Below are positions 2,255 through 22,504 of a stretch of DNA of 64,000 bases, one piece after another. The number at the start of each line of letters is the position of its first letter. Position 1 is the first letter of the stretch. The DNA is from a virus. A program made the translations under genes and the position numbers. The stretch lies in IMG/VR virus record IMGVR_UViG_3300011258_000777, positions 5,893 through 69,892 of that record; one strand, 5' to 3'. The notes under the pieces are model-generated. The model made no database searches, was not told the origin of the DNA, and saw only the letters and a program-made list of their open reading frames with translations.

Positions 2255-5200
2255 CTAGACCTGCCTTTGATAAGAGATGAAAACTGGGACCTCTTCTACT
2301 CCTGCCTTGATTGCGTAACGCAAATCATCTTCATTTCCAGTTATCTTTGCTCTCCCGTTCTTGCCGATCGCTAAGTAAATAGGGTCGCGAGTACCATTCT
2401 GAATAAAATTCTGGTATCCTGCATCAAAATGATGTCCGTGCTTTCGGGGCTCTCTGCCGCAGAGATGTTTCAAGTCCTCAACAGGCATCATTACGCTGTA
2501 TCGCGTTAGGTTGTGGTTTGTTGGCTGATCATACATAACCCCACCCTCAACCCAGTCATCTATCAGATTTTGAATAGATGGGAGCGGAGTTGTTCTGCCG
2601 GGGGACTGCCTCATCGTTGAGTTGTAGTAAGACTCTTCAAGTGACTGCCTGCTTGAAGAAATCAATTCGGCTCGGTCTACCTTGTGGATACGAATTTTTG
2701 GACTAATCTTATGTATTTGTGGTAGAAGCACTTGTCTGACCCACTCTAATCTGTTCTTTTGCCCACGGAGAGCAAACTTTAGGCGCTGGAGTGATAGTGT
2801 TCTGTTGCCTTGTGATCTTTTTGCGTTACCAACGGTTCTAACAGTCGTTACATCAGGGATCGCACGGATAATGTTGTGAATGTCGGTAATTTCAAAGCCT
2901 TGACCAAGAGGATAAGACATAACATAGTCAATCTCGTAGAGTCTCACATCAAGCGGATTGCCTGCTTCTTGTAGCGACTCTCCTTGATCTTCAGCATCCC
3001 ACTTGGCTAGCTGATCTTTGATTGGTCCTGCGACTGCTTTTTTCATAGTTTCGATCAACATACCCAAGCGTTGTAGGAAATTAGCGTAGCCTTCTGCGCT
3101 TTCACGAGAAACCTCTGGGTTGAGAATTGCTGCTGAATTTATAAAGTCAACAAATGAGGGATTCAATCCATCCACTATCATCCAGAACCTTGAATCTGCC
3201 TTCTTGGCAGAGTCGATCCTCGCGCTTCGTCCGGCACCGAGGACGCGGATAGCTCTACTAGCATCGCCGGCTGCGACAAAGGAGATGCCCAAATTAGGAT
3301 TTTTAGTTGATAGTAGTTCAGACGAGTCTGTTATTTTTATCAATTCCAGAATGACCTGCGTGTCGGAGTCGTTCTGATTGGAGCCGGACCAGATCAGTTG
3401 TTCCTTACTTGGCTTAAATGGCAATTCTATTGCAATTATATCAGTCTCCTGTTGCCAGAAGACTCTGGGCTGATGCCCCACCATCTCACCACCTACCAGC
3501 AAGCGGTTGGTTGGAGTGTTTTCTCCATAAACTTCATTGAATTTCTGTAGTTTCTCATTACAAGCAACTCGTAATTCTTCTTTTGCTTCTGGTAAACTAT
3601 CATCTTCAAGATCGCTGGTGATCCCCGTCTCTTGAGTGAGGTATCTTGCTAACTTCTCGAAAGATTCTTTCGAGTTGCCGTATTTCCCAAGTTCATCATT
3701 ATGAACGGCTCCAGTTAGATTCACAAACTCTGCGATGTGTTTCCAAAACTGCTCTAGTGGAGCGTCGTTGCCGCGTCCTTTGATTTGGTAGATTGTTTTT
3801 TTAATACCTGGATTGTAAGAAATTGTTACATAAGACCTAGATTCTTTTTTGCCCTCGTCTTTCTTTCGGAGTGAGTAGAGGCTCCCCCACATACCCATAC
3901 CGCAGTGCCCCATCCTCTCGCCCTCGTTTTTACATCTTGAAGTCTTGAGATCATACCAGTAAGATCCATCATCAAATCTGTGGATAATCTGGTCTGGGTT
4001 TTCGATTTTTGCTTGGTATTCCTCCATTGCCTCGTTCGCCGCAGACCAATCCCAGTCGGGGAAGTCTTTTATCATTTCGTAGTTGTTGGGGTTTTGATTT
4101 AGAGTAGTGACCACGCTGTTTATTCTTTCTTTGAGAAAGTATTTCAAAGTCCCTTGTAGTCCTCTATCAACTAATCGTAGAATCTTATCTGTTATTGTCT
4201 GATCAGCACCGAGCTTGCTCGCTGCTTTTACGAAAGACTTGCGAGCCTTAATAACTTGTTTTATGTTTCCCGTGCGAAGGGCACGATCAAGATTCAAAAA
4301 AGGATTCGCTTCGGGATTGTCCCCAAACTGAAAGAGTTTGTAGTGCTCATCAACAAGAGTAATAAGTTCTGCTAGCATCCGATCTCTGGCAGGACCTAAG
4401 ATGGCGTATTTTTTAAAAGCATTACCGACCCAAACGCGACCTTTCTCGCTTGCTTCGGGCAGAAACTCCGTAATCAGACCAACCAAGTCATCAGGCAGTC
4501 CGATGTCGGCTAAGCCTTCTGTGATCAATCCCTCTTCAACAGGTAGACTTGTGTCTGAGCCTGTTCTCTGTTGGTAAACTTCTTCTGCTTTCTTCACTTC
4601 TGCTCTGACGCCCTTCTGGAAACCCTTGATCATCACATCAAAGTGATTATCGTAGTATTCGATGTAAGGTCCGAGAACAGGGAAAGTGTTCTTGTCCATA
4701 ATAATTGTAATCTTGTAATTAATAGAGGGTGGCGTTCCCTTGCCTGCTGGGGTTGTGGTGATACCAATGAAGGCACCTTGTTCTATGATCTCAAATGCCT
4801 TATCAAAAGTATCTTCAGGAATTTGTTCGTATTTCTCTCCAAAGTTCAGTTTCATCTGGTTTTTGGCGAAAGCCTTGGCTCGGCTGTCGTGTGTAAACAC
4901 GGTGTCCAAGAACTCGTGTCTTAGAGCATGACCCCAGTAAGATCCGTTTTCTTGTCTAAAGAGCGATTGATTGAATCCAACCTGCTTGAGTGCCTGCATT
5001 TGCTCTTCGGTCGCCTTAAACAAAACACCAGAAGCAAACAATTCTATCACATCTCTTTTTGCTTTGGTTGAAGTTGCGACCGTAAAGTTGTTGAATTCTT
5101 CCTCAACCTTGTCGATGTATCCCTTGTAATCGGGGCGCTTTGTGAGGTTCTTTGAGATTAGGAGATCTTCGATTGCATCAAGTGAGTCGTCAAGATCGTC

Positions 5201-6727
5201 AACCAATTCGTTGACGACTTCATACCATTCTTCGAATGCATCTGCGTCGGTGATGTCGAAGTTGTCAGCAGCGTATTCTGCTAATGCTTGACTAATGTCC
5301 CAAAGAACAACGTAAGTATCAGAACCTTTTGTCAATTGCTCTCGGTCTTCTCTCATTAGTCTCGACATGTTGTCGGCTTTAAGGAATGCCTGTGCGTAGT
5401 TGTCTGCCTTGACCAAGTAAGCATAAGCCTGACTGTAGTGGTGTGCGTCTCTTATAATGTCGTTTCTATCTTCTTCTTGGACGATCTTCATTATTGCTTC
5501 TTCTATTTCGTCGCCAAGAGCAAGGTCTTGGGGGTCTTCGGAGCCAACAGCGAAAAAAGTACGCATCTTTTCTTCAGACAAATCAAATGGTAGCTTGGAA
5601 GCAATGGAACTTACACTAGCACCCCACACAGGGGTGTCGCCATCAAATCCATCTAGTACATCAGTCGAAACACCATCAAAGTCTACCTGCTGGAAATAAT
5701 CTGTACCTCTCCAGCTATTCTCAAGGCGTTCTACTTGTTCTCTGAACTCCTCCAACCTTTTCTCGAATGAACCCTCGAAAGAAATGCTGGTGTTATTATT
5801 AAGCCATTGTCCCATTTCTTCAAAGCCCTCTACGTCATTAGAATACTCGCCAGTTTCTTCTAATTTCTCTGCGCCTGTAATCTCAATGAACTTTGCAACG
5901 TGATTCCATAGTTCTGATGGCGGTGCTGAGTTCTGGCGACCCTTGATTTGGTAGATGGTTTCGTTTTGGGTGTTGTAGGCAATAGTGATGTAAGACTTAG
6001 AGGCTTTCTTGCCCTCTTCTTTTTTGCGTAGTGAGTAAAGCGTGCCCCGTTCATCTCCGCCGCAGTGACCCATTCTATCACCTTCCATGCTGCACTGGTA
6101 ACTGTCGAGGTCATACCAGTATGAGCCATCCTTGAATACGTGCATAATTTTATCAGGGTCTTCCTGTGTTTTCTGGAAATCAAAACACTCTTTTTCAGCT
6201 TGTTGATAATCGCTGGGAGGAATGTCTTTGATTAACTGATAATTGTTTGGGTTCTGGTTGAGAGTAACGATAACATTCTCAATGCGACTGATAAACCAAT
6301 TCCAAGTTCTCTTTTCAAGAACTTTAAAATCAATCAGCACTTGTCTGGCTGCGTCATCGGGAAAATTAAATTTCAGCACATTTTTGGCGAACTTGCGCTT
6401 TGCCTTTGGCCACTTACCAGCAGGCTGTGTTGTGTAGGTGCTTATCAGGTCAAGCAAGATGTTGTTATCTCCGCGATGGAATGCGTCCAGGGTGGCTCCC
6501 GCCGTCGCGTTTCTGAGATAACCCTCAAACCAGCCATAGTTGGAAATTCTCTTTCCATCAAGAGACTTCCAAGCAGCACCAACCCACATACGACCTTTCT
6601 CGCTTGCTTCGGGCAGCGCAGCCTCTATCTCTTTTTGGATCATCTCATCCAATCCAATGTCGGCTAAGCCTTCGGTGAGTACCTCTCCTCTTATGTGTTT
6701 AAACCATTTATCAGTCGCAAAAGACAT
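2255..6727 (-). CDS. large multidomain protein with two tandem PcfJ-like modules and a C-terminal ParB/Srx-like region
   Basis: Two copies of EGxRMGHCG...LYSLR...SYxTIxY...IYQIKGRxNxAP; C-terminal DPIYLAIGKNG...LRYAIKAGVEEVPVF; start placed at ATG 6727 behind GGAG. Confidence 0.7.
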   Translation of the reverse strand: MSFATDKWFKHIRGEVLTEGLADIGLDEMIQKEIEAALPEASEKGRMWVGAAWKSLDGKRISNYGWFEGYLRNATAGATLDAFHRGDNNILLDLISTYTTQPAGKWPKAKRKFAKNVLKFNFPDDAARQVLIDFKVLEKRTWNWFISRIENVIVTLNQNPNNYQLIKDIPPSDYQQAEKECFDFQKTQEDPDKIMHVFKDGSYWYDLDSYQCSMEGDRMGHCGGDERGTLYSLRKKEEGKKASKSYITIAYNTQNETIYQIKGRQNSAPPSELWNHVAKFIEITGAEKLEETGEYSNDVEGFEEMGQWLNNNTSISFEGSFEKRLEEFREQVERLENSWRGTDYFQQVDFDGVSTDVLDGFDGDTPVWGASVSSIASKLPFDLSEEKMRTFFAVGSEDPQDLALGDEIEEAIMKIVQEEDRNDIIRDAHHYSQAYAYLVKADNYAQAFLKADNMSRLMREDREQLTKGSDTYVVLWDISQALAEYAADNFDITDADAFEEWYEVVNELVDDLDDSLDAIEDLLISKNLTKRPDYKGYIDKVEEEFNNFTVATSTKAKRDVIELFASGVLFKATEEQMQALKQVGFNQSLFRQENGSYWGHALRHEFLDTVFTHDSRAKAFAKNQMKLNFGEKYEQIPEDTFDKAFEIIEQGAFIGITTTPAGKGTPPSINYKITIIMDKNTFPVLGPYIEYYDNHFDVMIKGFQKGVRAEVKKAEEVYQQRTGSDTSLPVEEGLITEGLADIGLPDDLVGLITEFLPEASEKGRVWVGNAFKKYAILGPARDRMLAELITLVDEHYKLFQFGDNPEANPFLNLDRALRTGNIKQVIKARKSFVKAASKLGADQTITDKILRLVDRGLQGTLKYFLKERINSVVTTLNQNPNNYEMIKDFPDWDWSAANEAMEEYQAKIENPDQIIHRFDDGSYWYDLKTSRCKNEGERMGHCGMGMWGSLYSLRKKDEGKKESRSYVTISYNPGIKKTIYQIKGRGNDAPLEQFWKHIAEFVNLTGAVHNDELGKYGNSKESFEKLARYLTQETGITSDLEDDSLPEAKEELRVACNEKLQKFNEVYGENTPTNRLLVGGEMVGHQPRVFWQQETDIIAIELPFKPSKEQLIWSGSNQNDSDTQVILELIKITDSSELLSTKNPNLGISFVAAGDASRAIRVLGAGRSARIDSAKKADSRFWMIVDGLNPSFVDFINSAAILNPEVSRESAEGYANFLQRLGMLIETMKKAVAGPIKDQLAKWDAEDQGESLQEAGNPLDVRLYEIDYVMSYPLGQGFEITDIHNIIRAIPDVTTVRTVGNAKRSQGNRTLSLQRLKFALRGQKNRLEWVRQVLLPQIHKISPKIRIHKVDRAELISSSRQSLEESYYNSTMRQSPGRTTPLPSIQNLIDDWVEGGVMYDQPTNHNLTRYSVMMPVEDLKHLCGREPRKHGHHFDAGYQNFIQNGTRDPIYLAIGKNGRAKITGNEDDLRYAIKAGVEEVPVFISYQRQV
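3620..6680 (-). repeat. intragenic tandem duplication (copies at about 6680-5780 and 4525-3620)
   Basis: TEGLADIGL...LPEASEKGRxWVG repeated; identical 26-nt block cgacctttctcgcttgcttcgggcag at 4437-4462 and 6591-6616. Confidence 0.9.
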
Positions 6728-13900: not shown

Positions 13901-14569
13901 TTATTTTGAAGCGAGTCTACGATAAATGCGCTCGGCTAGCTTGTTCGCCATAGCATCTTTCTTCTTCTCACGAATGAGTCGAGCAGAGACTCGGCGGGCG
14001 ACTTCTTGTACTATTTCTTCTTCGCCCATTTCCTCGTCATCTTCCATCTCGATTCCCATATCGTTATCTTCGCCTTCGGGAGCGGCATCGACCTCTAGTT
14101 CACCACCTTCTACGTCTTCAGCTTCACCCCCCATTTCCATCTCATCTTCACCGACCTCTACATCGGCGTCGAGACCGAGTAGATCTGCGAGCTTGTCTAC
14201 GATGTCCGCAAACTGCTCTTCTTTTCCACCTTCCATGTCGCCCATGGCTCCCATGTCCATGTCGTCGCCCATGTCCATTTCCATGTCGCCTGCGGGCTCT
14301 TCACCCATATCGGCATCCATTTCCATGTCCATTTCTTCGCCGCCCTCGGGGGCTGGGGCTTCTTCGGCGTCCATCTCCATCTCTTCTTCTTCACGCATAT
14401 CGCGCATACCGGGAGCATCACGCATACCGGGTTCGTCCTCTTCTTCCTCGTCGTCACGCATACCGGGTGGCATACCGTAACTTCCGCCCATCTCTTGGAG
14501 GGGCTGAATGTTCGCTAGCTTCATGAACTGGCGAATCTCTGATTCTGATAATAGTGTCTTGCGAGCCAT
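13901..14569 (-). CDS. highly acidic low-complexity protein, putative internal head/scaffold-like protein
   Basis: D/E/M-rich core with three PGMRD repeats; N-terminal LLSE..RQFMKLANI..LQE; strong AAGGAG RBS. Confidence 0.7.
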   Translation of the reverse strand: MARKTLLSESEIRQFMKLANIQPLQEMGGSYGMPPGMRDDEEEEDEPGMRDAPGMRDMREEEEMEMDAEEAPAPEGGEEMDMEMDADMGEEPAGDMEMDMGDDMDMGAMGDMEGGKEEQFADIVDKLADLLGLDADVEVGEDEMEMGGEAEDVEGGELEVDAAPEGEDNDMGIEMEDDEEMGEEEIVQEVARRVSARLIREKKKDAMANKLAERIYRRLASK

Positions 14570-14883: not shown

Positions 14884-15227
14884 AGATCTGGGAACTCCTC
14901 TGCGATTAAGTCAAATAGGTTTTCTTTCTCGGCGTCATCAAGGAGCCCCCAATCTTCCAGCTTTTCTTTTCCTTTTCGTTTTAGCTTGAGAGACTTTGCG
15001 AATCTCTTTCGACTCAAGAGCTTATGTTCTAAAACATAATCTTCCATAAAAGCCATAAGATTTGGATCTTCCTGAACAACGCCATCAATCACTGCACGAA
15101 AAAACTGAGATGCATTTAATTTATTGTGTCTCAGTTTTATTATAAGCCGTGCGTGATCATCATCGGCAACCCAAAAGCGGATCGACTTTATGTCTTCTCC
15201 GTAGTTTGGTTTATCAGTCATCACCAC
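14880..15227 (-). CDS. hypothetical protein (possible ribbon-helix-helix DNA binder)
   Basis: KSIRFWV strand followed by two helices; overlaps both neighbours. Confidence 0.55.
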   Translation of the reverse strand: MVMTDKPNYGEDIKSIRFWVADDDHARLIIKLRHNKLNASQFFRAVIDGVVQEDPNLMAFMEDYVLEHKLLSRKRFAKSLKLKRKGKEKLEDWGLLDDAEKENLFDLIAEEFPDL

Positions 15228-16243
15228 TGCCGGTTGATGATGTGTGTCTTGCTCTCGCCCAATCCGGCAGAAGTCTGCCGAACAAACTCGACCCTGTATT
15301 GCATCTCGTCAATCGAACGGACACCAGAGTAGGAAAGCCCGGATCGAATGCCTTGCTCAAGGTCTGAGAGGATGTTGCGAACCTTGCCGCGATAAGGAAC
15401 AGTAGAGGACACACCTTCAAATGATGAGTATCTTCCCCGCCACTCTACCTGTGCTTCCTTGGAAGCCATCCCTCGGTAGGTCTTGTATTTGCGTCCCTGA
15501 GCGTCTGTAAAAACTTCTCCGGGTGTTTCCCTTGTGCCAGAAAGTAGAGAGCCTAGCATAACCGCGTCGGCTCCTGCTGCGAGAGCTTTCACGATGTCTC
15601 CAGAGTTGCGAATGCCGCCGTCTGCTATGATTGTTACATCGCGGTCGGTCATAGCGCAATCCATGATCGTTTGTAGCCCAGGGTGTCCGTGACCTGTCTG
15701 GACACGGGTAGAACAGATAGAGCCTCCCCCGATGTTACAACGAACAGAGTTTGCTCCCCAGTCTGCGAGATCATTGATTCCCTGGAGAGTTGCTACATTA
15801 CCAGCCATAATGTGTAGATCATCGCCAATAGCCCCTCTAATTGTGTGTAGTGCTTCTTTCATCATAATGTGATGCCCGTGGGCTACATCAACACAAACAA
15901 AGGTTGCGCCTGCGGCAAGGCACTCACGCACTCTAGATTGCATATCATCGCCAACACCAACAGCGAAGCCAATGTTTTCTGCTCCGTTGGTTTTTGCTAT
16001 GCGAACCAACTGGGCTTGCTCTTCTGGCGTGTTGTATCTGTGGATGATTGCCGAACCACCCTGCTCTGACATTGCGAACGCCATAAGGTCTTCCGAGATT
16101 GTGTCCATAGGGGACGCAAAGATCGGTAGGTCAAGCTTTAGTCCGTTCCCCAAATTAGAATGGATATCCACTTCAGATCGACTGCGGATATCGGAATACT
16201 GCGGAAGGATGAGAATGTCGTCATAAGTTAATGCCTCTTTCAT
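15221..16243 (-). CDS. guaB: IMP dehydrogenase / GMP reductase family protein, no CBS domains
   Basis: ALTYDD, SPMDT, VDVAHGH, AGNVAT, catalytic GSICSTR, IADGGI, YRGMAS; start reassigned to ATG 16243. Confidence 0.9.
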   Translation of the reverse strand: MKEALTYDDILILPQYSDIRSRSEVDIHSNLGNGLKLDLPIFASPMDTISEDLMAFAMSEQGGSAIIHRYNTPEEQAQLVRIAKTNGAENIGFAVGVGDDMQSRVRECLAAGATFVCVDVAHGHHIMMKEALHTIRGAIGDDLHIMAGNVATLQGINDLADWGANSVRCNIGGGSICSTRVQTGHGHPGLQTIMDCAMTDRDVTIIADGGIRNSGDIVKALAAGADAVMLGSLLSGTRETPGEVFTDAQGRKYKTYRGMASKEAQVEWRGRYSSFEGVSSTVPYRGKVRNILSDLEQGIRSGLSYSGVRSIDEMQYRVEFVRQTSAGLGESKTHIINRQW

Positions 16244-16244
16244 G

Positions 16245-16613
16245 TTAGTTCCTGTTCTTGTCAATAAAGATTCGGATTCCGGTTGGGTCAAACCAAGTTT
16301 CCTTGTTGGGATTCTCGGGGTCTTCCATAAAATCAACCTTGGGTCTCATACCTCCGGTCTTAACATAACAGATAGACGGAACACCTTGAAAGCCGTATTT
16401 TTTCTCAAGTCCATCTCCATCCTCCATGTTAAAAGCATAGAAGTGGACACCGTCGTAGTCTTCAGAGAGGTCTACGAAGCGAGGCTTCAAGGCGTGGCAT
16501 AAGTGGCAATTAGAGCCATAGAACTTAATTACGACTTCATGTTCGCCGTCAACTTTTCCGCCTAGAATTTGCTCTAGGTTCTTTCTGTTTATCCTAGCTA
16601 TTGTCATTTTCAT
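16245..16613 (-). CDS. thioredoxin-like protein
   Basis: KFYGSNCHLC CxxC motif and GVP cis-Pro motif. Confidence 0.8.
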   Translation of the reverse strand: MKMTIARINRKNLEQILGGKVDGEHEVVIKFYGSNCHLCHALKPRFVDLSEDYDGVHFYAFNMEDGDGLEKKYGFQGVPSICYVKTGGMRPKVDFMEDPENPNKETWFDPTGIRIFIDKNRN

Positions 16614-16926
16614 ATCCTTCTATGATGCGGTCGAGATACCAGCGTGCTTTCTTGAGGTCCTCAAGAGCTTTTGCCTTGTGCCGGTGTCTCGCTACATACT
16701 TTACCACGTTGCCTGCGTTGAAGTCAAGCCCCCAATCCTCGATGGCATCAATTACTTCTATGCTGCCTTGGTTGTAGTGCGTGGGGTTATTGACTGCTTC
16801 GCGTCGTGCTAGACCTTCTAATCCCTCTAGCTGCTGCAAGTAGCTTGCTGCTACTTCTTCGGTGGGAGGAGGGTCGTCCATCCCTTGTGAATCAAATAGG
16901 TCAATCTTTTGTGTTGGCGTGGGCAT
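16594..16926 (-). CDS. DUF3310-family protein (T7 gp1.7-like nucleotide kinase family)
   Basis: VNNPTHY...IEVIDAIE...GNVVKYV.R...EDLKKARWYL. Confidence 0.8.
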   Translation of the reverse strand: MPTPTQKIDLFDSQGMDDPPPTEEVAASYLQQLEGLEGLARREAVNNPTHYNQGSIEVIDAIEDWGLDFNAGNVVKYVARHRHKAKALEDLKKARWYLDRIIEGYENDNS

Positions 16927-17158
16927 TGAGTGCTCCTTGGGTTATCTCGATGCATTGGGGGCAAAATAGTGAGACGTGAGAGGGATTCTCGCGCACAACT
17001 ACTCGCCAAGTTAGTGCGTGTTCTTTTGATTTTTTATCAAATGGGGCGTCGCACGTTGAACATGCGTCTGGTCTGTGGCTAAAGCTGGAAATTTTTTGGG
17101 CGAGTTTCTCGTTGCCTTTGTTCTTCTTCTTGAGCCGCCGCCGTTGTGCTCTATTCAT
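16901..17158 (-). CDS. small zinc-finger protein
   Basis: CSTC...CPQC; basic MNRAQRRR N-terminus. Confidence 0.65.
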   Translation of the reverse strand: MNRAQRRRLKKKNKGNEKLAQKISSFSHRPDACSTCDAPFDKKSKEHALTWRVVVRENPSHVSLFCPQCIEITQGALNAHANTKD

Positions 17159-17655
17159 AGGAGCCCCATTTTTTGGAAAAATGTTTTTAGTTCAAACTTT
17201 GAGTGTTCGGGATTTTGGAACTTTTCCCTGATAAGACACAGAGCGTCGTAGTCATCGAGAAATTCTTCAAAACTTTGTTCCCAACGCTTTGAGACCTTTT
17301 TTCCATACTCGCTTTCTTCATGATCTAGAATCATCAAATAACCACGCCTTGCTGAAGGATGTACTTTTTTATTCATGGCGGCGTTCCCAACGGCTTCTTC
17401 AAGTCGATTATTGAAGTTTTTATTGCCACTATTAGACTTTGCTTCTATAACCGCGAAAAGAGCATGAGTAGATTTATCATAAATTGGATAATCCCACCGC
17501 TTAGTTCGATTTACACCTTCAGCGACGCCGCCCTTTTTTAGATAATAGCTTGAACCTTCAAGCAGTTCTTCTATAACCTTTGTTAGTCCAGCAAAGTGCT
17601 TATCTTTTGTTTTAACTGGGCTGTCTCTATAGAAATGAAGAATTTGCTTTATCAC
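17155..17655 (-). CDS. XhoI/PaeR7I-family restriction endonuclease-like protein
   Basis: KRWD...AVIEAKS...NFNNRLEEAVGNA resembles the K.WD...IELKS...NFNNR.EEAIG.A signature of this family; short at 166 aa. Confidence 0.65.
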   Translation of the reverse strand: MIKQILHFYRDSPVKTKDKHFAGLTKVIEELLEGSSYYLKKGGVAEGVNRTKRWDYPIYDKSTHALFAVIEAKSNSGNKNFNNRLEEAVGNAAMNKKVHPSARRGYLMILDHEESEYGKKVSKRWEQSFEEFLDDYDALCLIREKFQNPEHSKFELKTFFQKMGLL

Positions 17656-18131
17656 GGTCGCTCCATTCCGGTGATGCGTGGTCCGTTAAATGATGACTGC
17701 CGGAACACCACCACTGCTGATGGGAATGGGGCACTATTCGTCTCGTCACCAAATTTGATGCGTCCTCGGACGAAGCGAATCTCATCTGCTTTCATCACGT
17801 AGTCGTGCCAATACTTGGTGTCGGTGCGGGCGGGAATAAGCATTACAACTGTTGTGTCGTCGTTCTGCCCCTCTTCGTAAGCCTTCTTGATCCAATCCTT
17901 GAGGTTACGACCATAAGGTGGGTTTAGGAAGACACGATTACCAGACCAGTCCTGAGCAAGTGAATCATCTGCTTCGGTGTAGTGGTTGGCGACCTTGTAG
18001 TTATCAGCCGATGCTGCGGCATCTAGGGTGAATGGTCCAAAGATGCTGTCGAGCTTGTCGAAGAACGATTGTGGTGTAGCCCAATCGTTCGACTTTGAGC
18101 TAAACATTACCTGCGTTGTGTTCTTGTCCAT
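17652..18131 (-). CDS. phage-type DNA N6-adenine methyltransferase
   Basis: WATP, FTLDAAA, VFLNPPYG, LIPARTDT, GRIKF, APFPS. Confidence 0.9.
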   Translation of the reverse strand: MDKNTTQVMFSSKSNDWATPQSFFDKLDSIFGPFTLDAAASADNYKVANHYTEADDSLAQDWSGNRVFLNPPYGRNLKDWIKKAYEEGQNDDTTVVMLIPARTDTKYWHDYVMKADEIRFVRGRIKFGDETNSAPFPSAVVVFRQSSFNGPRITGMERP

Positions 18132-19652
18132 TTATCCTCCAAAAATTTGTGTTTTGATTCGCGAGATGTTGCGGTATGTATTCTTGTAACCGCTATGAAT
18201 CGTGTTGTCAAGGTGAATCTTGGAATAAACTATCTGGGCGATAGCATCGTTGATGAAGTCCTTGGCTACATCGTTCCGAGGTCCTGAAATGATGCCGCGA
18301 ACAAATGCAATGTCGTAGTTGAAAACTGCAACGATTTGCAGTTTGTTATTGATTAGGCGCTCCTCTACGTCCCACATAAAATTGTTTGGTCCAAGCGGCT
18401 TTAGGTCGATGTTAAACAGACCTTGTGTAAAGTTTACCGATGTCGTTGTGACTTTTGTTTGTGGGTTGGGTGGAAATTTTGGCGCGGAAACGATGCTGAT
18501 AACTTTGTCTATTTCCTTGAGGATTGCCGGGGGTGGTGGCTTTTGTTCAAAATCCGCTTCCCTTGTGGTAACATAGGATGAGAATTTTTGCGGCAGATTC
18601 TCGCGGAGACTCTCCAATCCTGTAAGCAATCGGGTGTGCTGTGAGAGGGGCACGAAAACTTCACTTGCCTGTGGAGTTGATTCAATAATCTTCTTTATCT
18701 CGGCAACAAGCCCGGAATTGAAAAAGAAGGCGCGTCTGAATCCCCTATCAATAGCCTGATTGGGGCTAATCGTCTTCATCGGGGTCATCTTTAAGCAATC
18801 ATCAAGCTTATCGTTCCCCCATAAGACAATCTGGTATTCAGCCATGGCTGGGTCTGAAATGCCTGGGATTCCAAGTGTGTAGCCGCTGGCGATAATCCTG
18901 TCGTTTCTAACGATGGTCAAGCCAGAAAGCATACTGTCGTTGTCGCGGAGGAGGATTGAGATCCCGAATTCAATGTCGTTGAACTTTACGGTCTTTTTAT
19001 CAAACTCTGGAATTATGGGCTTGCCGAACAACTTTGTGAATTTGATGTCGCCGCCATTCAACTCTACTCTTATGTTTTTCTGCTTGAAGTTGATAGCGTA
19101 GGTTCTTGAGATGAATGTCTGAAGAGTAGCAGTATCAACATCGCTAAACTGCTCTTTCAGTTTTGGAATTACGATAATTGTCCCACTTGTAGAATTGGCT
19201 GCTTTATCGGCGTTCCAGATAGACTGGTAATGCCCGAACTCGGGATCAGTCTGCGGGATTGACTTGATTTCATATTGCCAATTATTGTTTGGCTCTGCTT
19301 TACCCCAAGTAAAGGTTCCTCTCTGAAGTGATAGAACTGTTGTTCCGTCTCCAAGAAAACTGGTGGCTGACTTGAACCCATAGCCAAATTTTCCTGTTTC
19401 GCCCTCGGAATGTTCACTTCTCTTAATGCGAAACATAGATACCATGGTTTCTGGGTTCAAGCCAGCACCATCATCACTGATGATGATTCGATCTGGCTTA
19501 CAGACAATCTTAATGGTAGTAGTGTTCCCGTATTCTCCAGAGTTATCAATTAACTCTGCAAGTGCAGTGTTCTTGTCTGGATAAACACCCAAAGCGCCAT
19601 ATAGGGCTTCTTTCTCGGGTGGTGCTGCTTCTGTCAAAATTGTCTGTGCCAT
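18132..19652 (-). CDS. GHKL (MORC/Hsp90/MutL-like) ATPase
   Basis: Bergerat-fold motifs LAELIDNS, DDGAGL, GKFGYGFK, GTII; followed by an S5-like region and a C-terminal domain. Confidence 0.85.
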   Translation of the reverse strand: MAQTILTEAAPPEKEALYGALGVYPDKNTALAELIDNSGEYGNTTTIKIVCKPDRIIISDDGAGLNPETMVSMFRIKRSEHSEGETGKFGYGFKSATSFLGDGTTVLSLQRGTFTWGKAEPNNNWQYEIKSIPQTDPEFGHYQSIWNADKAANSTSGTIIVIPKLKEQFSDVDTATLQTFISRTYAINFKQKNIRVELNGGDIKFTKLFGKPIIPEFDKKTVKFNDIEFGISILLRDNDSMLSGLTIVRNDRIIASGYTLGIPGISDPAMAEYQIVLWGNDKLDDCLKMTPMKTISPNQAIDRGFRRAFFFNSGLVAEIKKIIESTPQASEVFVPLSQHTRLLTGLESLRENLPQKFSSYVTTREADFEQKPPPPAILKEIDKVISIVSAPKFPPNPQTKVTTTSVNFTQGLFNIDLKPLGPNNFMWDVEERLINNKLQIVAVFNYDIAFVRGIISGPRNDVAKDFINDAIAQIVYSKIHLDNTIHSGYKNTYRNISRIKTQIFGG

Positions 19653-20366: not shown

Positions 20367-20389
20367 TTAGTCCTCCTTGTTATGTATGT

Positions 20390-20418
20390 AATGTAACCGG
20401 TCACGCTGCTGCTGTCAA
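20390..20418 (-). promoter_or_regulatory. sigma70-type promoter
   Basis: TTGACA-N17-TACATT, followed by AGGAGG RBS. Confidence 0.75.
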
Positions 20419-21357
20419 GCGCTCAGCGTCGTTTTTCTTGAGATTGAACAGGGCAAGCTCCTTAGCCTTCGCCTCGATCATCACGTCGAGGTCGTAGCCG
20501 TAGTCGTCAACAGGTCCGTTGACGTAATCTGAGTGTGCGTGGGGACGAATCTTAGCGTCCTTCTTCTCTTCTGCTCTCGACTCAGAGTAGTGGACTACCG
20601 GCTTGATGTCTCCCCACGTCGAAATAGCCAGTTCCAAAGCCTGCTTCTCCGTAAGGTCGCCTGTGCAGAAGCCATGATGATGATAGTCAAAAACAATAGG
20701 AATGCCAGTGCGAGTAAATACCCCGTCATATAGCTCTTGAGTCGAGTATAGGCTTTGTCGATCATCGTTCTCCACCGTGAGTCTTGAAGTTACTGACACC
20801 GGCAGGCGCTCAAAGTTCCGTGCAAAAGTATCTAGTGCGACCGGCTTGTTGTTGTAAGCTGCGCCGACGTGAATGTTGATCTTTGCGTAGTGATTTCGGG
20901 GCAATCCCAGCATGTCGAAGAACTCGCCGTGAATCTCCAAGTCGCGCTTGGTGTTCTCAAACACACGCTCTTTGGGGGAAGCGAGCTTGTTGAACGGACC
21001 AGGGTGAGAGGTGATGCGAATGCCGTGCTGGCGAATGTAGTTGCCAGAACGCTCGCACGCTTCGTAGATTGCCTCGTAGTCGGGCATGTCGTGAAGTTGG
21101 TATTCTGACGCCCAAGGGAAGACGTTGGAGGACAAACGGAAGAAATTGATCCCATGCTGGACATTCCACTCAAGGACTTTCTGAAGGTCCAAGATGTTCA
21201 AGAGGGCGAGGGATGAAGCGTATTCAATGCCCTTTTCTTGGAAGGTCCTCTTGATCATCGTGCGGTTGGTGGTGATTCTATCATTCTTGTGACCACCGAA
21301 GTCTTGTGGGTTAGAAAGCTGCATGTTGATGCAGGCGTATCCATAATTCTTGCTCAT
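20401..21357 (-). CDS. uvdE: UV damage endonuclease (UvdE/UvsE)
   Basis: GYACIN, FFRLSS, HPGPF, INIHVG, LTVENDD, VFDYHHH, HYSES, HSDY, MIEAK.KE. Confidence 0.95.
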   Translation of the reverse strand: MSKNYGYACINMQLSNPQDFGGHKNDRITTNRTMIKRTFQEKGIEYASSLALLNILDLQKVLEWNVQHGINFFRLSSNVFPWASEYQLHDMPDYEAIYEACERSGNYIRQHGIRITSHPGPFNKLASPKERVFENTKRDLEIHGEFFDMLGLPRNHYAKINIHVGAAYNNKPVALDTFARNFERLPVSVTSRLTVENDDRQSLYSTQELYDGVFTRTGIPIVFDYHHHGFCTGDLTEKQALELAISTWGDIKPVVHYSESRAEEKKDAKIRPHAHSDYVNGPVDDYGYDLDVMIEAKAKELALFNLKKNDAERLTAAA

Positions 21358-21378: not shown

Positions 21379-21407
21379 AATATAGCCCGTCAGGCGGCTT
21401 CTGTCAA
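21379..21407 (-). promoter_or_regulatory. sigma70-type promoter
   Basis: TTGACA-N17-TATATT upstream of uvdE. Confidence 0.75.
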
Positions 21408-22397
21408 GCCCTTTTCGTCCGAGATCGTGCGGGGGTTGTCAGAGAAATAAATCTTATCTATTCCTAGTCTCGCACTAAACTGTTCTTGCAAGAATGACCG
21501 AAATGATGATTCATTCTCAACATAAGCCTCAGTTGTTCCCCAAGAGCCGACCTCTCGCAAAATGTCCACTTTGTTTATAACAAGGCGGTTGACTCCGTTC
21601 ATGCTAATGGCACGCTGGACCTCCTTCACGTTTATCCAATTACACTGCCTCACACGCCCTGTGGTGGCTCCAAATTCCTGCCCGACCTCTTGGATGCGGT
21701 TGAAGATTTCAGAGGCTGGCTGGAAGCTACGGGCTCCTACATAGGTCTCGTAAGCTTTGATGATGCCCCAGACATTGCGAATAGAGCGGGGGCTGATGCC
21801 GTTCTGGATGGCGGCAGCCGTGCCTGTGTGTGAAGACGTTACAAACGGGTAATCGCCCCAGTCAGGGTCAAGCCAGAAGCCTTGTGCCCCTTCCATCAAG
21901 ACCACTGTGTCGCCTGATAGCTCTTCGTAAATGTCTACTAGATAAGGTTTGAAGTTAAGTACGTCGCAGGCGCGAATGCCAGTCCGACCATACTTATCAC
22001 GATAAGCAGGTCCATTACCAGTTCTAGTTGTTCCAATCTTCTCGTCAGCGCCGTCTTCGATTTTGTGGTCTTCGGTGATAACATGAGCATTTTTTGCGAT
22101 CCTTAGATGTTGCCGCACGGGGATTCCGTGGGATTCTAAGTAGTCTATCTCTTCTTCTAACTTCATCGGATCAATCACGCAACCGTTGCCGATTACTGAT
22201 GTAACTCCGAAAAAGACGCCTGCTGGGATGTGATGGGTGACAAACTTTTTTCCATTATGGAAGATCGTGTGTCCCGCATTACAACCCCCATTGAATCTAA
22301 CGCAATGGGTGTATTCTCCACTCTTGAGCAAGTGGTGGGTAACCTTTCCTTTACCCTCGTCTCCGTGTTGGAGACCAATAACAACGTCGGTAATCAA
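21390..22397 (-). CDS. purA: adenylosuccinate synthetase (short form)
   Basis: GDEGKGK, NAGHT, EGAQG, YPFVTSS, GATTGR, NKVD; TTG start at 22397 behind GGAGG. Confidence 0.93.
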   Translation of the reverse strand: MITDVVIGLQHGDEGKGKVTHHLLKSGEYTHCVRFNGGCNAGHTIFHNGKKFVTHHIPAGVFFGVTSVIGNGCVIDPMKLEEEIDYLESHGIPVRQHLRIAKNAHVITEDHKIEDGADEKIGTTRTGNGPAYRDKYGRTGIRACDVLNFKPYLVDIYEELSGDTVVLMEGAQGFWLDPDWGDYPFVTSSHTGTAAAIQNGISPRSIRNVWGIIKAYETYVGARSFQPASEIFNRIQEVGQEFGATTGRVRQCNWINVKEVQRAISMNGVNRLVINKVDILREVGSWGTTEAYVENESSFRSFLQEQFSARLGIDKIYFSDNPRTISDEKGLTEAA

Positions 22398-22504
22398 GTT
22401 TCCTCCTTGTTTCTGAACTTGTACCAATAACTTAACATAGGGAGCGAACTAATGCAAGCGAAAAGTGCTGCCCACTCTCCGTGGCAATTCACTAAGTGTT
22501 CCAT
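22394..22504 (-). CDS. 36-aa small hydrophobic protein (not in the ORF track)
   Basis: MEHLVNCHGEWAALFACISSLPMLSYWYKFRNKEET; GAGG RBS; stop overlaps the purA TTG. Confidence 0.55.
   Translation of the reverse strand: MEHLVNCHGEWAALFACISSLPMLSYWYKFRNKEET

Follow-up and report, generated by a model that had tools for sequence, protein, structure and literature searches.

A XhoI-family nuclease gene carried as a probable solitary and mobile cassette beside an adenine methylase and a MORC-like ATPase in a marine myovirus

Results

The three genes

We examined a three-gene cluster in a 64,000-nt stretch (hereafter the window) of the viral record IMGVR_UViG_3300011258_000777, in which a MORC-like GHKL ATPase, a small N6-adenine DNA methyltransferase and a compact XhoI-family endonuclease, all assigned by prediction, lie next to one another. 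Three co-oriented minus-strand open reading frames (ORFs) fill positions 17155-19652: the ATPase (18132..19652, 506 amino acids (aa)), the methylase (17652..18131, 159 aa) and the nuclease (17155..17655, 166 aa), all at the coordinates given by an earlier note made from the letters alone. That note had described an ATPase with every Bergerat motif, an NPPY methyltransferase and a protein with the signature WD...EAK...NFNNR.EEA to be compared with XhoI profiles, and these assignments were borne out by the family models and alignments described below. Its account of the junctions was half right. The TAA stop of the ATPase gene directly adjoins the methylase ATG, as it said; the overlap of methylase and nuclease is GTGA, with a GTG start on the methylase stop, and the ATGA that it had placed there is the overlap between the nuclease gene and the next gene downstream, orf85.

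The nuclease scored 26.9 bits (E 5.5e-6) with the Pfam model PF04555 (XhoI), whose cut-off is 25, and matched the PADLOC model REase_II for type II enzymes (E 6.5e-8). The signature is made up of W54-D55, E71-A-K73 and N-F-N-N-R84-x-E86-E87-A, and D55, E71 and K73 are the predicted catalytic residues of a PD-(D/E)xK enzyme. Six clusters at 75-100% identity are full length and keep all catalytic residues. Among 1.84 billion representatives, a profile of these six close homologues picked out 30 proteins with E <= 0.001; most have 143-244 aa, and a subfamily of 143-200 aa is included. Our alignment set, also of 30, comprised 27 profile-found proteins, the window protein, P0002 and P0005; P0041, P0056 and P0060, which are long and match in repetitive multiple stretches, were left out. 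K52, D55, E71, R84, E87 and G90 are invariant in this set, as are residues of the NFNNRxEEA helix, and K73 is nearly so; PF04555 matched 29 of the 30 members (best E 1.2e-68). The ORF is free of frameshifts and stops. A search by sequence found no solved structure for the nuclease. Its AlphaFold2 model scored a predicted local distance difference test (pLDDT) of 92.8 and a predicted template modelling score of 0.88, and Foldseek gave 13 matches at E <= 0.001, the best being NucC, BbvCI, PspGI, BstEII and MunI. Alignment and model point to an intact catalytic core in a restriction-endonuclease fold.

The methylase matched PF05869 (Dam) at E 2.3e-34, scored 103.2 bits against a cut-off of 97.05 with TIGR01712, carries NPPY in its translation and matched the PADLOC orphan methyltransferase model at E 3.5e-55; it is thus of the small, phage-borne orphan type, and no solved structure was found for it by sequence. 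Known PF05869 members methylate GATC. A literature look for T1 Dam found no paper on the specificity of PF05869. The Hia5-type non-specific adenine methylases were set aside as a guide: they belong to a different, Dam-related DPPY family, according to the available text of PMC3299994, and say nothing direct about the window methylase. The methylase family is vastly wider than the other two: of 8000 candidates scored, at least 7992 clusters proved related at E <= 1e-5, a lower bound, against 28 clusters for the ATPase and six for the nuclease.

The ATPase matched PF13589 (HATPase_c_3) over residues 28-119 at E 2e-13, and its Bergerat motifs (E33/N37, D60-G62-G64, G87-K88-F89-G90-G92 and G157-T158) are invariant among 20 homologues. 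Against PDB sequences its profile best matched human and mouse MORC4, MORC3 and MORC2 (E 2.7e-11 to 1e-4), and the S5 region of MORC4 gave a further, weak alignment. The AlphaFold2 model has a mean pLDDT of 69.5, high over residues ~20-330 and low over 370-412 and 479-506; Foldseek placed the ATPase modules of MORC2, MORC3 and MORC4 on top (E 6e-14 to 1e-12, template modelling (TM) score 0.42-0.56, 357-450 aligned columns), followed by Hsp90/TRAP1 and SMCHD1. Profile and model together would place the protein among the GHKL + S5 ATPases of MORC/paraMORC type. Its C-terminal region (~330-506) matched no known domain, an Atlas look-up that excluded GHKL families returned unnamed clusters only, and its N-terminus is weakly like the GHKL-bearing restriction enzymes BbrUII/HgiDII (E 5e-6, far under the cut-off). 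Orthology with T4 rIIA was rejected by hhalign of the ATPase profile (probability 2.5%). A prediction of an ATPase-nuclease complex scored 0.00 against a mark of 0.32, a result that gives no verdict and is evidence in neither direction.

The cassette and its distribution

DNA alignment to four empty alleles, BLAST breakpoints and metagenome contigs agree that the window and the related contig L005 carry one clean inserted block of 497 nt, an unstranded feature at 17155..17651 with boundaries ambiguous by 3 nt. It starts straight after the RTGA that closes the methylase gene and ends in the ATGA that restarts orf85 (16901..17158, minus strand), whose own start is here supplied by the 3' end of the cassette and which in empty alleles begins at the methylase stop, in a GTGA or ATGA overlap. 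The nuclease would thereby take over the ribosome-binding site and start that formerly served orf85, with both translational couplings kept. The composition of the cassette is foreign: its GC content is 38.3% (32.3% at third codon positions), against 43-54% in the neighbouring genes and about 50% in the methylase gene. Identity to L002, a near-identical empty allele, is 97.2% on the methylase side and drops to 89.0% on the orf85 side.

The occupancy of this slot was tallied among relatives of the ATPase drawn from viral and metagenome contigs, onto which twelve window proteins were mapped by tblastn. Twenty-four distinct contigs cover the site on both sides, from the end of the methylase gene to the start of orf85; left out were second copies (L010, L011, L012, L016, L022, L027), contigs that end before the site (L021, L031, L032, L035-L037) and those with distant ATPase homologues (L038-L045). 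The slot is empty in 22 of the 24, with the methylase stop and orf85 start at the same coordinate, and filled in two: by the XhoI-like gene in L005, which is 100% identical to the window, and by a different gene in L028. Empty alleles span all seven classes of ATPase identity, from 99% (L002, L003) to 49% (L033, L034). In the complete 191-kb relative, searches with the window protein and the Pfam model found no XhoI-family gene.

The L028 gene encodes 179 aa, is unrelated to the XhoI-like gene and is inserted in the same manner at the same junction; its cassette is likewise AT-rich (38.8% GC, against 50.4% for the L028 methylase gene). Moderate evidence that it is PvuII-like comes from a sub-threshold match to PvuII (E 0.022) and from the Atlas, where the clusters nearest to it are viral 'PvuII domain' proteins (score 0.96, 198/256 features, PF09225 in 44% of members); no solved structure was found for it by sequence.

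Both alleles also occur in natural populations. We compared contigs from four runs of four studies (X1, the probable source, and X3, X4 and X5) over positions 16600-18400. X3 holds a 554-nt contig through the nuclease gene at depth 19 together with a contig joining 17154 to 17652, the empty allele, at depth 10.3. X4 has a 5357-nt contig of the filled allele, which shows 22 differences from the window. In X5 the empty allele is represented by an 809-nt contig at depth 19.7, with 3 and 12 differences from the window in its two flanks, and the nuclease gene by a 248-nt piece at depth 2.9. As filled and empty alleles stand side by side in single seawater samples, the cassette is a recent and dispensable polymorphism within populations.

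The genes upstream of the slot behave differently. The methylase lies directly behind the ATPase in all 24 assessable contigs, and the ATPase is kept at 49-99% identity in all close relatives. Joint gain and loss of ATPase and nuclease around the methylase, a check proposed by the earlier note, was thus not seen. The methylase protein beside the PvuII-like cassette is identical, with 0 differences, to that of six empty-slot contigs, and the window methylase differs from those of empty alleles by 1-2 residues; nothing therefore points to co-adaptation of methylase and nuclease. Nor was the joint inheritance of an orthodox type II restriction-modification (R-M) system found, given that the methylase occurs without a nuclease in 22 of 24 contigs and is the same protein with or without a cassette. 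Across relatives the order orf86-dUTPase-ATPase-methylase-orf85-DUF3310-thioredoxin-IMPDH-like is syntenic. The adjacency of ATPase and methylase is ordinary lineage synteny, no stronger than that of ATPase and dUTPase, because all neighbours keep their order and distant ATPase homologues lack the methylase. Such homologues with 26-31% identity and 570-650 aa (in L038, L040 and L043-L045) belong to another phage group; a CobS-like AAA_5 (AAA+) gene stands a few small genes upstream of them, and the available flanks hold no same-strand methylase-motif ORF beside them. The fixed R-M operon context of MORC/paraMORC ATPases, a superfamily II (SFII) helicase and/or an endonuclease, was not found either: no SFII helicase adjoins the ATPase, and its constant neighbours are the dUTPase and the Dam-type methylase.

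Two side observations concern the ATPase. In L038 (775-6978) the distant homologue lies upstream of a DUF2201 VWA/metallopeptidase gene. In the L033/L034 branch the ATPase outpaces its neighbours: it retains 49% identity, whereas the methylase retains 87%, orf86 90% and the dUTPase 72%; divergence faster than that of neighbouring genes is often seen in conflict genes.

The partners usual for the XhoI family were sought in bacteria and archaea. A pattern scan confirmed at least 386 XhoI-family loci among 600 pattern-matched stretches, and the best 80 were kept. In 65 of these 80 the nuclease adjoins an ORF that is 180 aa or longer and carries SPPY or NPPY, and all six methylase-motif neighbours that were scanned proved to be PF01555 (beta-class) or PF07669 (gamma-class) with a TaqI-like domain. 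Purpose-built hidden Markov models found neither a PF05869-like methylase nor a relative of the ATPase within 4 kb at any of the 80 loci. The window nuclease thus lacks the adjacent beta- or gamma-class methylase typical of its family, its neighbour being PF05869; the earlier note had itself cautioned that the small phage-type enzyme is not the usual XhoI partner. No gene of PF01555, PF07669 or PF02384 was found in the 69.9-kb record, which represents about 38% of the genome.

Absent palindromes and a second variable slot

The window contains no CTCGAG, the archetypal XhoI site, against 17.4 +/- 3.9 in 100 shuffles. The earlier note had observed this absence and had cautioned that other palindromes are depleted as well; both points stand. 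Eighteen of the 64 palindromic hexamers are missing, including CTCGAG, GTCGAC, CAGCTG, CTGCAG and GAGCTC, so the absence of CTCGAG is not specific. Among tetramers, GGCC occurs five times, where about 150-164 would be expected; GTAC, CATG and ATAT reach about one third of expectation. CAATTG, AAATTT and GATC are not depleted; no 4-bp palindrome is depleted less than GATC, with 274 occurrences where composition predicts 245, a level that fits adenine methylation by the resident methylase and is no proof of it. CTCGAG is likewise missing from all four related records searched, including the complete 191-kb genome without a XhoI-family gene, and CAGCTG from all three. As CTCGAG is missing also from relatives without the gene, the purge is older than the cassette and was not caused by the nuclease. 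It is most simply read as a lineage trait that arose under host restriction pressure, and it would render an enzyme cutting CTCGAG or CAGCTG harmless to the phage.

UvdE and orf86 enclose another variable slot (20367..20400, unstranded); it is empty in the window and holds AT-rich inserts in relatives. L006, a locus of the 191-kb genome (G001), carries at 3830-5241 a MunI-like nuclease, which clears the PF11407 cut-off of 25 with 25.3 bits; behind it stands a D12 Dam-family methylase, which scored 157.7 with TIGR00571 (cut-off 114.85). The insert of L004 (3482-5246) encodes a weak T5orf172-like protein and then an Eco57I-type methylase, that of L008 (4818-5255) a lone PDDEXK_5 nuclease, and that of L033 (119-1258) a 379-aa protein without known family. 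Further GHKL-like proteins occupy the slot elsewhere: one of 543 aa in L018 (2615-4246), likewise in L019 and L029 and, judging from matching tblastn coordinates only, probably in L030, and a second kind of 553 aa in L025 (135-1796). They resemble the core ATPase at motif level only.

For CAATTG, the MunI site, the counts are 74 in the 191-kb genome and 25 in the window. In this small sample, and with assumed specificities, all three cases follow one pattern: where the archetypal site is absent the nuclease is alone (XhoI-like, PvuII-like), and where it is present (MunI-like) the nuclease comes with a methylase. This pattern is consistent with what would be predicted if the absence of sites permits a nuclease without a guard.

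Carrier phage and genomic setting

The viral record that holds the window is 69.9 kb long with an estimated completeness of 38%, and a complete 191-kb contig is among its relatives. The products of the window include a tail sheath, a major head protein, a tape measure, a large DNA polymerase, a DnaB-like helicase, a ribonucleotide reductase and a GroEL-like chaperonin. The carrier is therefore a large contractile-tailed phage, a marine myovirus of roughly 190 kb, and the cluster sits in a tightly packed DNA-metabolism region. The runs that contain the stretch are seawater or marine metagenomes; in RNA runs only 5-11% of the words sampled from it were present. The INPHARED phage collection gave no match to the phage at DNA or protein level.

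Several neighbouring genes deserve mention. The UvdE UV-damage endonuclease gene (20401-21357; PF03851, E 5e-57) is itself a variable one: L002, L003 and L022, 97-99% identical elsewhere, lack it from its place between the PurA-like gene and orf86. The PurA-like gene (21390-22427) encodes a short adenylosuccinate synthetase of 345 aa and matches a PHROG labelled as a 2-aminoadenine pathway enzyme. A Z-genome, in which base replacement would protect the phage, was nonetheless dropped as a candidate, the gene being PurA-type and not PurZ-type (PDB PurA at 3e-58 against PurZ at 5e-10; NCBIfam PurZ 113.5 bits against a cut-off of 300). Together with the IMP dehydrogenase/GMP reductase-like gene nearby (15221-16336), it suggests phage-driven purine interconversion and not a 2-aminoadenine genome. 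The TTG start listed for this IMPDH-like ORF overlaps the thioredoxin-like gene (16245-16613) by 92 nt. Since similarity to several relatives sets in only at residue 32, an internal Met near that residue is probably the true start. Finally, a 222-aa protein at 13901-14569 is extremely acidic and built of repeated E/D/M-rich units (MEMD-type repeats).

Discussion

On balance, and with guarded confidence, we favour the reading that the cluster is three separate things and not one inherited module, and that the XhoI-like gene is a solitary, mobile and dispensable nuclease cassette, tolerated since its likely site is missing and probably cutting host or rival DNA. We infer that the nuclease is an active type II-like endonuclease travelling without a cognate methylase. 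The ATPase is a separate, stable, fast-diverging core gene of the lineage, which the cassette would not require. The cassette sits seamlessly in the junction of methylase and orf85, where it would borrow a ribosome-binding site and start, and it gives orf85 a new start. The nuclease would then be expressed alongside early or DNA-metabolism genes and would cut a short palindrome missing from the phage genome. A genome already purged of many 6-bp palindromes, CTCGAG included, would let the carrier tolerate an unguarded nuclease. Host or co-infecting foreign DNA would be degraded and the carrier spared, and the products could feed the neighbouring nucleotide-salvage genes. What stands of the earlier note is thus its family assignments and the missing CTCGAG; its single module of three genes does not stand, and the antagonism to host or rival DNA that it proposed would still be the likeliest function of the nuclease.

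Several observations weigh against this reading. The nuclease is only 23-37% identical to most of its profile-found homologues (the nearest outlier is at 50%), which makes CTCGAG specificity an assumption, and its Pfam score is just 1.9 bits above the cut-off. It is ~30% (~70 residues) shorter than bacterial members, which are mostly 235-255 aa, and a rule in the available text of PMC3488263, by which proteins more than 20% shorter are probably truncated, would flag it. The same text relates that PaeR7I without its own methylase failed to restrict phage, so a lone member of the family might be weakly active. Many of the 24 contigs come from near-identical populations, so the independent lineages number nearer seven than 24, and profile scans of viral and metagenome contigs for the nuclease gene returned only L005 or nothing, leaving P0002-P0006 (75-89% identity) without a placed locus. 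A distant cognate methylase may lie outside the record, which covers about 38% of the genome. Finally, both methylase-less cassettes sit directly behind the Dam-type methylase and are translationally coupled to it, which also fits a methylase-then-nuclease operon if the specificity of the methylase is broad.

This last point leads to an alternative that we consider unlikely: a two-gene R-M unit in which the resident methylase, perhaps broad or non-specific, protects the genome and the slot serves as a docking place for nucleases sensitive to N6-methyladenine. The position of the XhoI-like and PvuII-like cassettes would be explained, as would the level of GATC if the phage methylates its adenines, and the nuclease cassettes of the other slot, which bring their own methylase, add to the case. 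Non-specific phage adenine methylases do exist, albeit in another family (available text of PMC3299994). Against a two-gene unit, the same methylase protein accompanies the PvuII-like gene and the empty slot, its type was found at none of the 80 bacterial loci, its family is far more widespread than either nuclease, and the archetypal sites are missing from the genome anyway.

Equally improbable, in our estimate, is a selfish, free-standing homing-type endonuclease that attacks the empty allele in co-infecting relatives close to the slot and is then copied in by repair, without benefit to the phage. The presence/absence polymorphism at an exact intergenic site that homing endonucleases show is found here, within samples and between conserved genes, with foreign composition and with another nuclease at the same slot, and the drop in identity to L002 across the slot resembles a possible co-conversion tract. 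The XhoI family is otherwise one of classical R-M enzymes, however, as the methylase-motif neighbours at 65 of 80 bacterial loci attest, and relatives with the empty allele have no CTCGAG, so the archetypal specificity could not cut them; no target site was identified.

The machine that the earlier note envisaged, in which the ATPase assists restriction by methylase and nuclease, seems very unlikely. MORC/paraMORC ATPases are predicted in R-M operons with nucleases and methylases (available text of PMC2292703), the three genes abut in the same orientation, and the faint resemblance of the ATPase to BbrUII/HgiDII points the same way. However, 22 of 24 contigs have ATPase and methylase but no nuclease and another has a different nuclease, no SFII helicase is a neighbour, against ~70% of such operons in the same text, distant ATPase homologues stand beside CobS-like AAA+ genes and not beside a methylase-motif ORF, and no relative of the ATPase was found at any of the 80 bacterial XhoI loci. 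Adjacency and tight coupling in this compact phage genome are no evidence of a functional module. Least probable of all is that the 166-aa gene has decayed into a truncated relic of a restriction enzyme, without activity and in the course of being lost, for although its short length, marginal Pfam score and absence from most relatives would fit, a subfamily of 143-200 aa exists, the six clusters at 75-100% identity are full length with catalytic residues kept, and the predicted fold is compact and confident in an ORF without frameshifts or stops.

The favoured reading of a solitary cassette can be extended, more tentatively, to the lineage as a whole. The phages may keep two fixed exchange slots that flank the block of dUTPase, ATPase and methylase (with orf86 also inside), through which restriction cassettes are swapped in and out. 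The palindrome purge might then act as a universal immunity, with nucleases whose sites are absent travelling alone and those whose sites are present travelling with a methylase, and phages would in this way turn type II enzymes into weapons against host and rival DNA.

Restriction enzymes are normally viewed as bacterial defences that need a protective methylase alongside. The virus described here appears to have one without such a partner, as a plug-in that still segregates, and its genome was already without the likely target. If the enzyme is active, site avoidance would gain a second pay-off, by letting phages acquire unguarded nucleases against the DNA of hosts or competitors. The minimal 166-aa XhoI-type scaffold may also be of enzymological interest. 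Our search for work on solitary restriction enzymes encoded by phages or viruses found only the prokaryote survey PMC3488263 and was too thin to claim that such enzymes are absent from print.

Comparison with known systems

The closest relatives by family are XhoI and PaeR7I (PF04555), with which the window nuclease shares the family model, the D...ExK core, the NFNNRxEEA helix and the predicted restriction-endonuclease fold. It differs in its size (166 against ~235-255 aa), in having no beta- or gamma-class methylase partner and in travelling as a lone phage cassette. By structure the best match of its model is NucC (PDB 6q1h, 6p7p and 7zgw; query-normalised TM 0.54-0.61, E ~2e-4), an effector nuclease of cyclic oligonucleotide-based antiphage signalling systems (CBASS) and CRISPR systems that is activated by cyclic trinucleotides. 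Identity to NucC is 13-18%, however, no CBASS or CRISPR genes are adjacent, and the sequence family is that of XhoI.

The free-standing homing endonucleases (seg/mob) of T4-like phages are small, exactly intergenic and polymorphic among close relatives, with different nucleases per slot. The cassette resembles them in its exact intergenic insertion, its polymorphism and the different nucleases at one slot, whereas its nuclease is of a restriction-enzyme family and not GIY-YIG or HNH and has no known target in the empty allele.

The ATPase shares with the MORC/paraMORC proteins of R-M operons (Iyer, Abhiman and Aravind 2008, PMC2292703, as far as its available text goes) a predicted GHKL + S5 architecture, most like MORC2/3/4, and a DNA methylase next door; it differs as a stable phage core gene with no helicase, no fixed nuclease and a C-terminal domain that matches nothing. 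To T4 rIIA, another phage GHKL protein, it has no detectable relation beyond the ATP-binding motifs.

As a model for an unguarded enzyme, the nearest parallel is PacI of Pseudomonas alcaligenes, whose solitary state is explained by absent sites in the available text of Ershova et al. 2012 (PMC3488263). Both are type II-like nucleases without a cognate methylase in a carrier genome that lacks the presumed site. The window case differs from that account of PacI in that the carrier is a virus, the purge is general and older (18/64 hexamer palindromes) and the cassette is still segregating.

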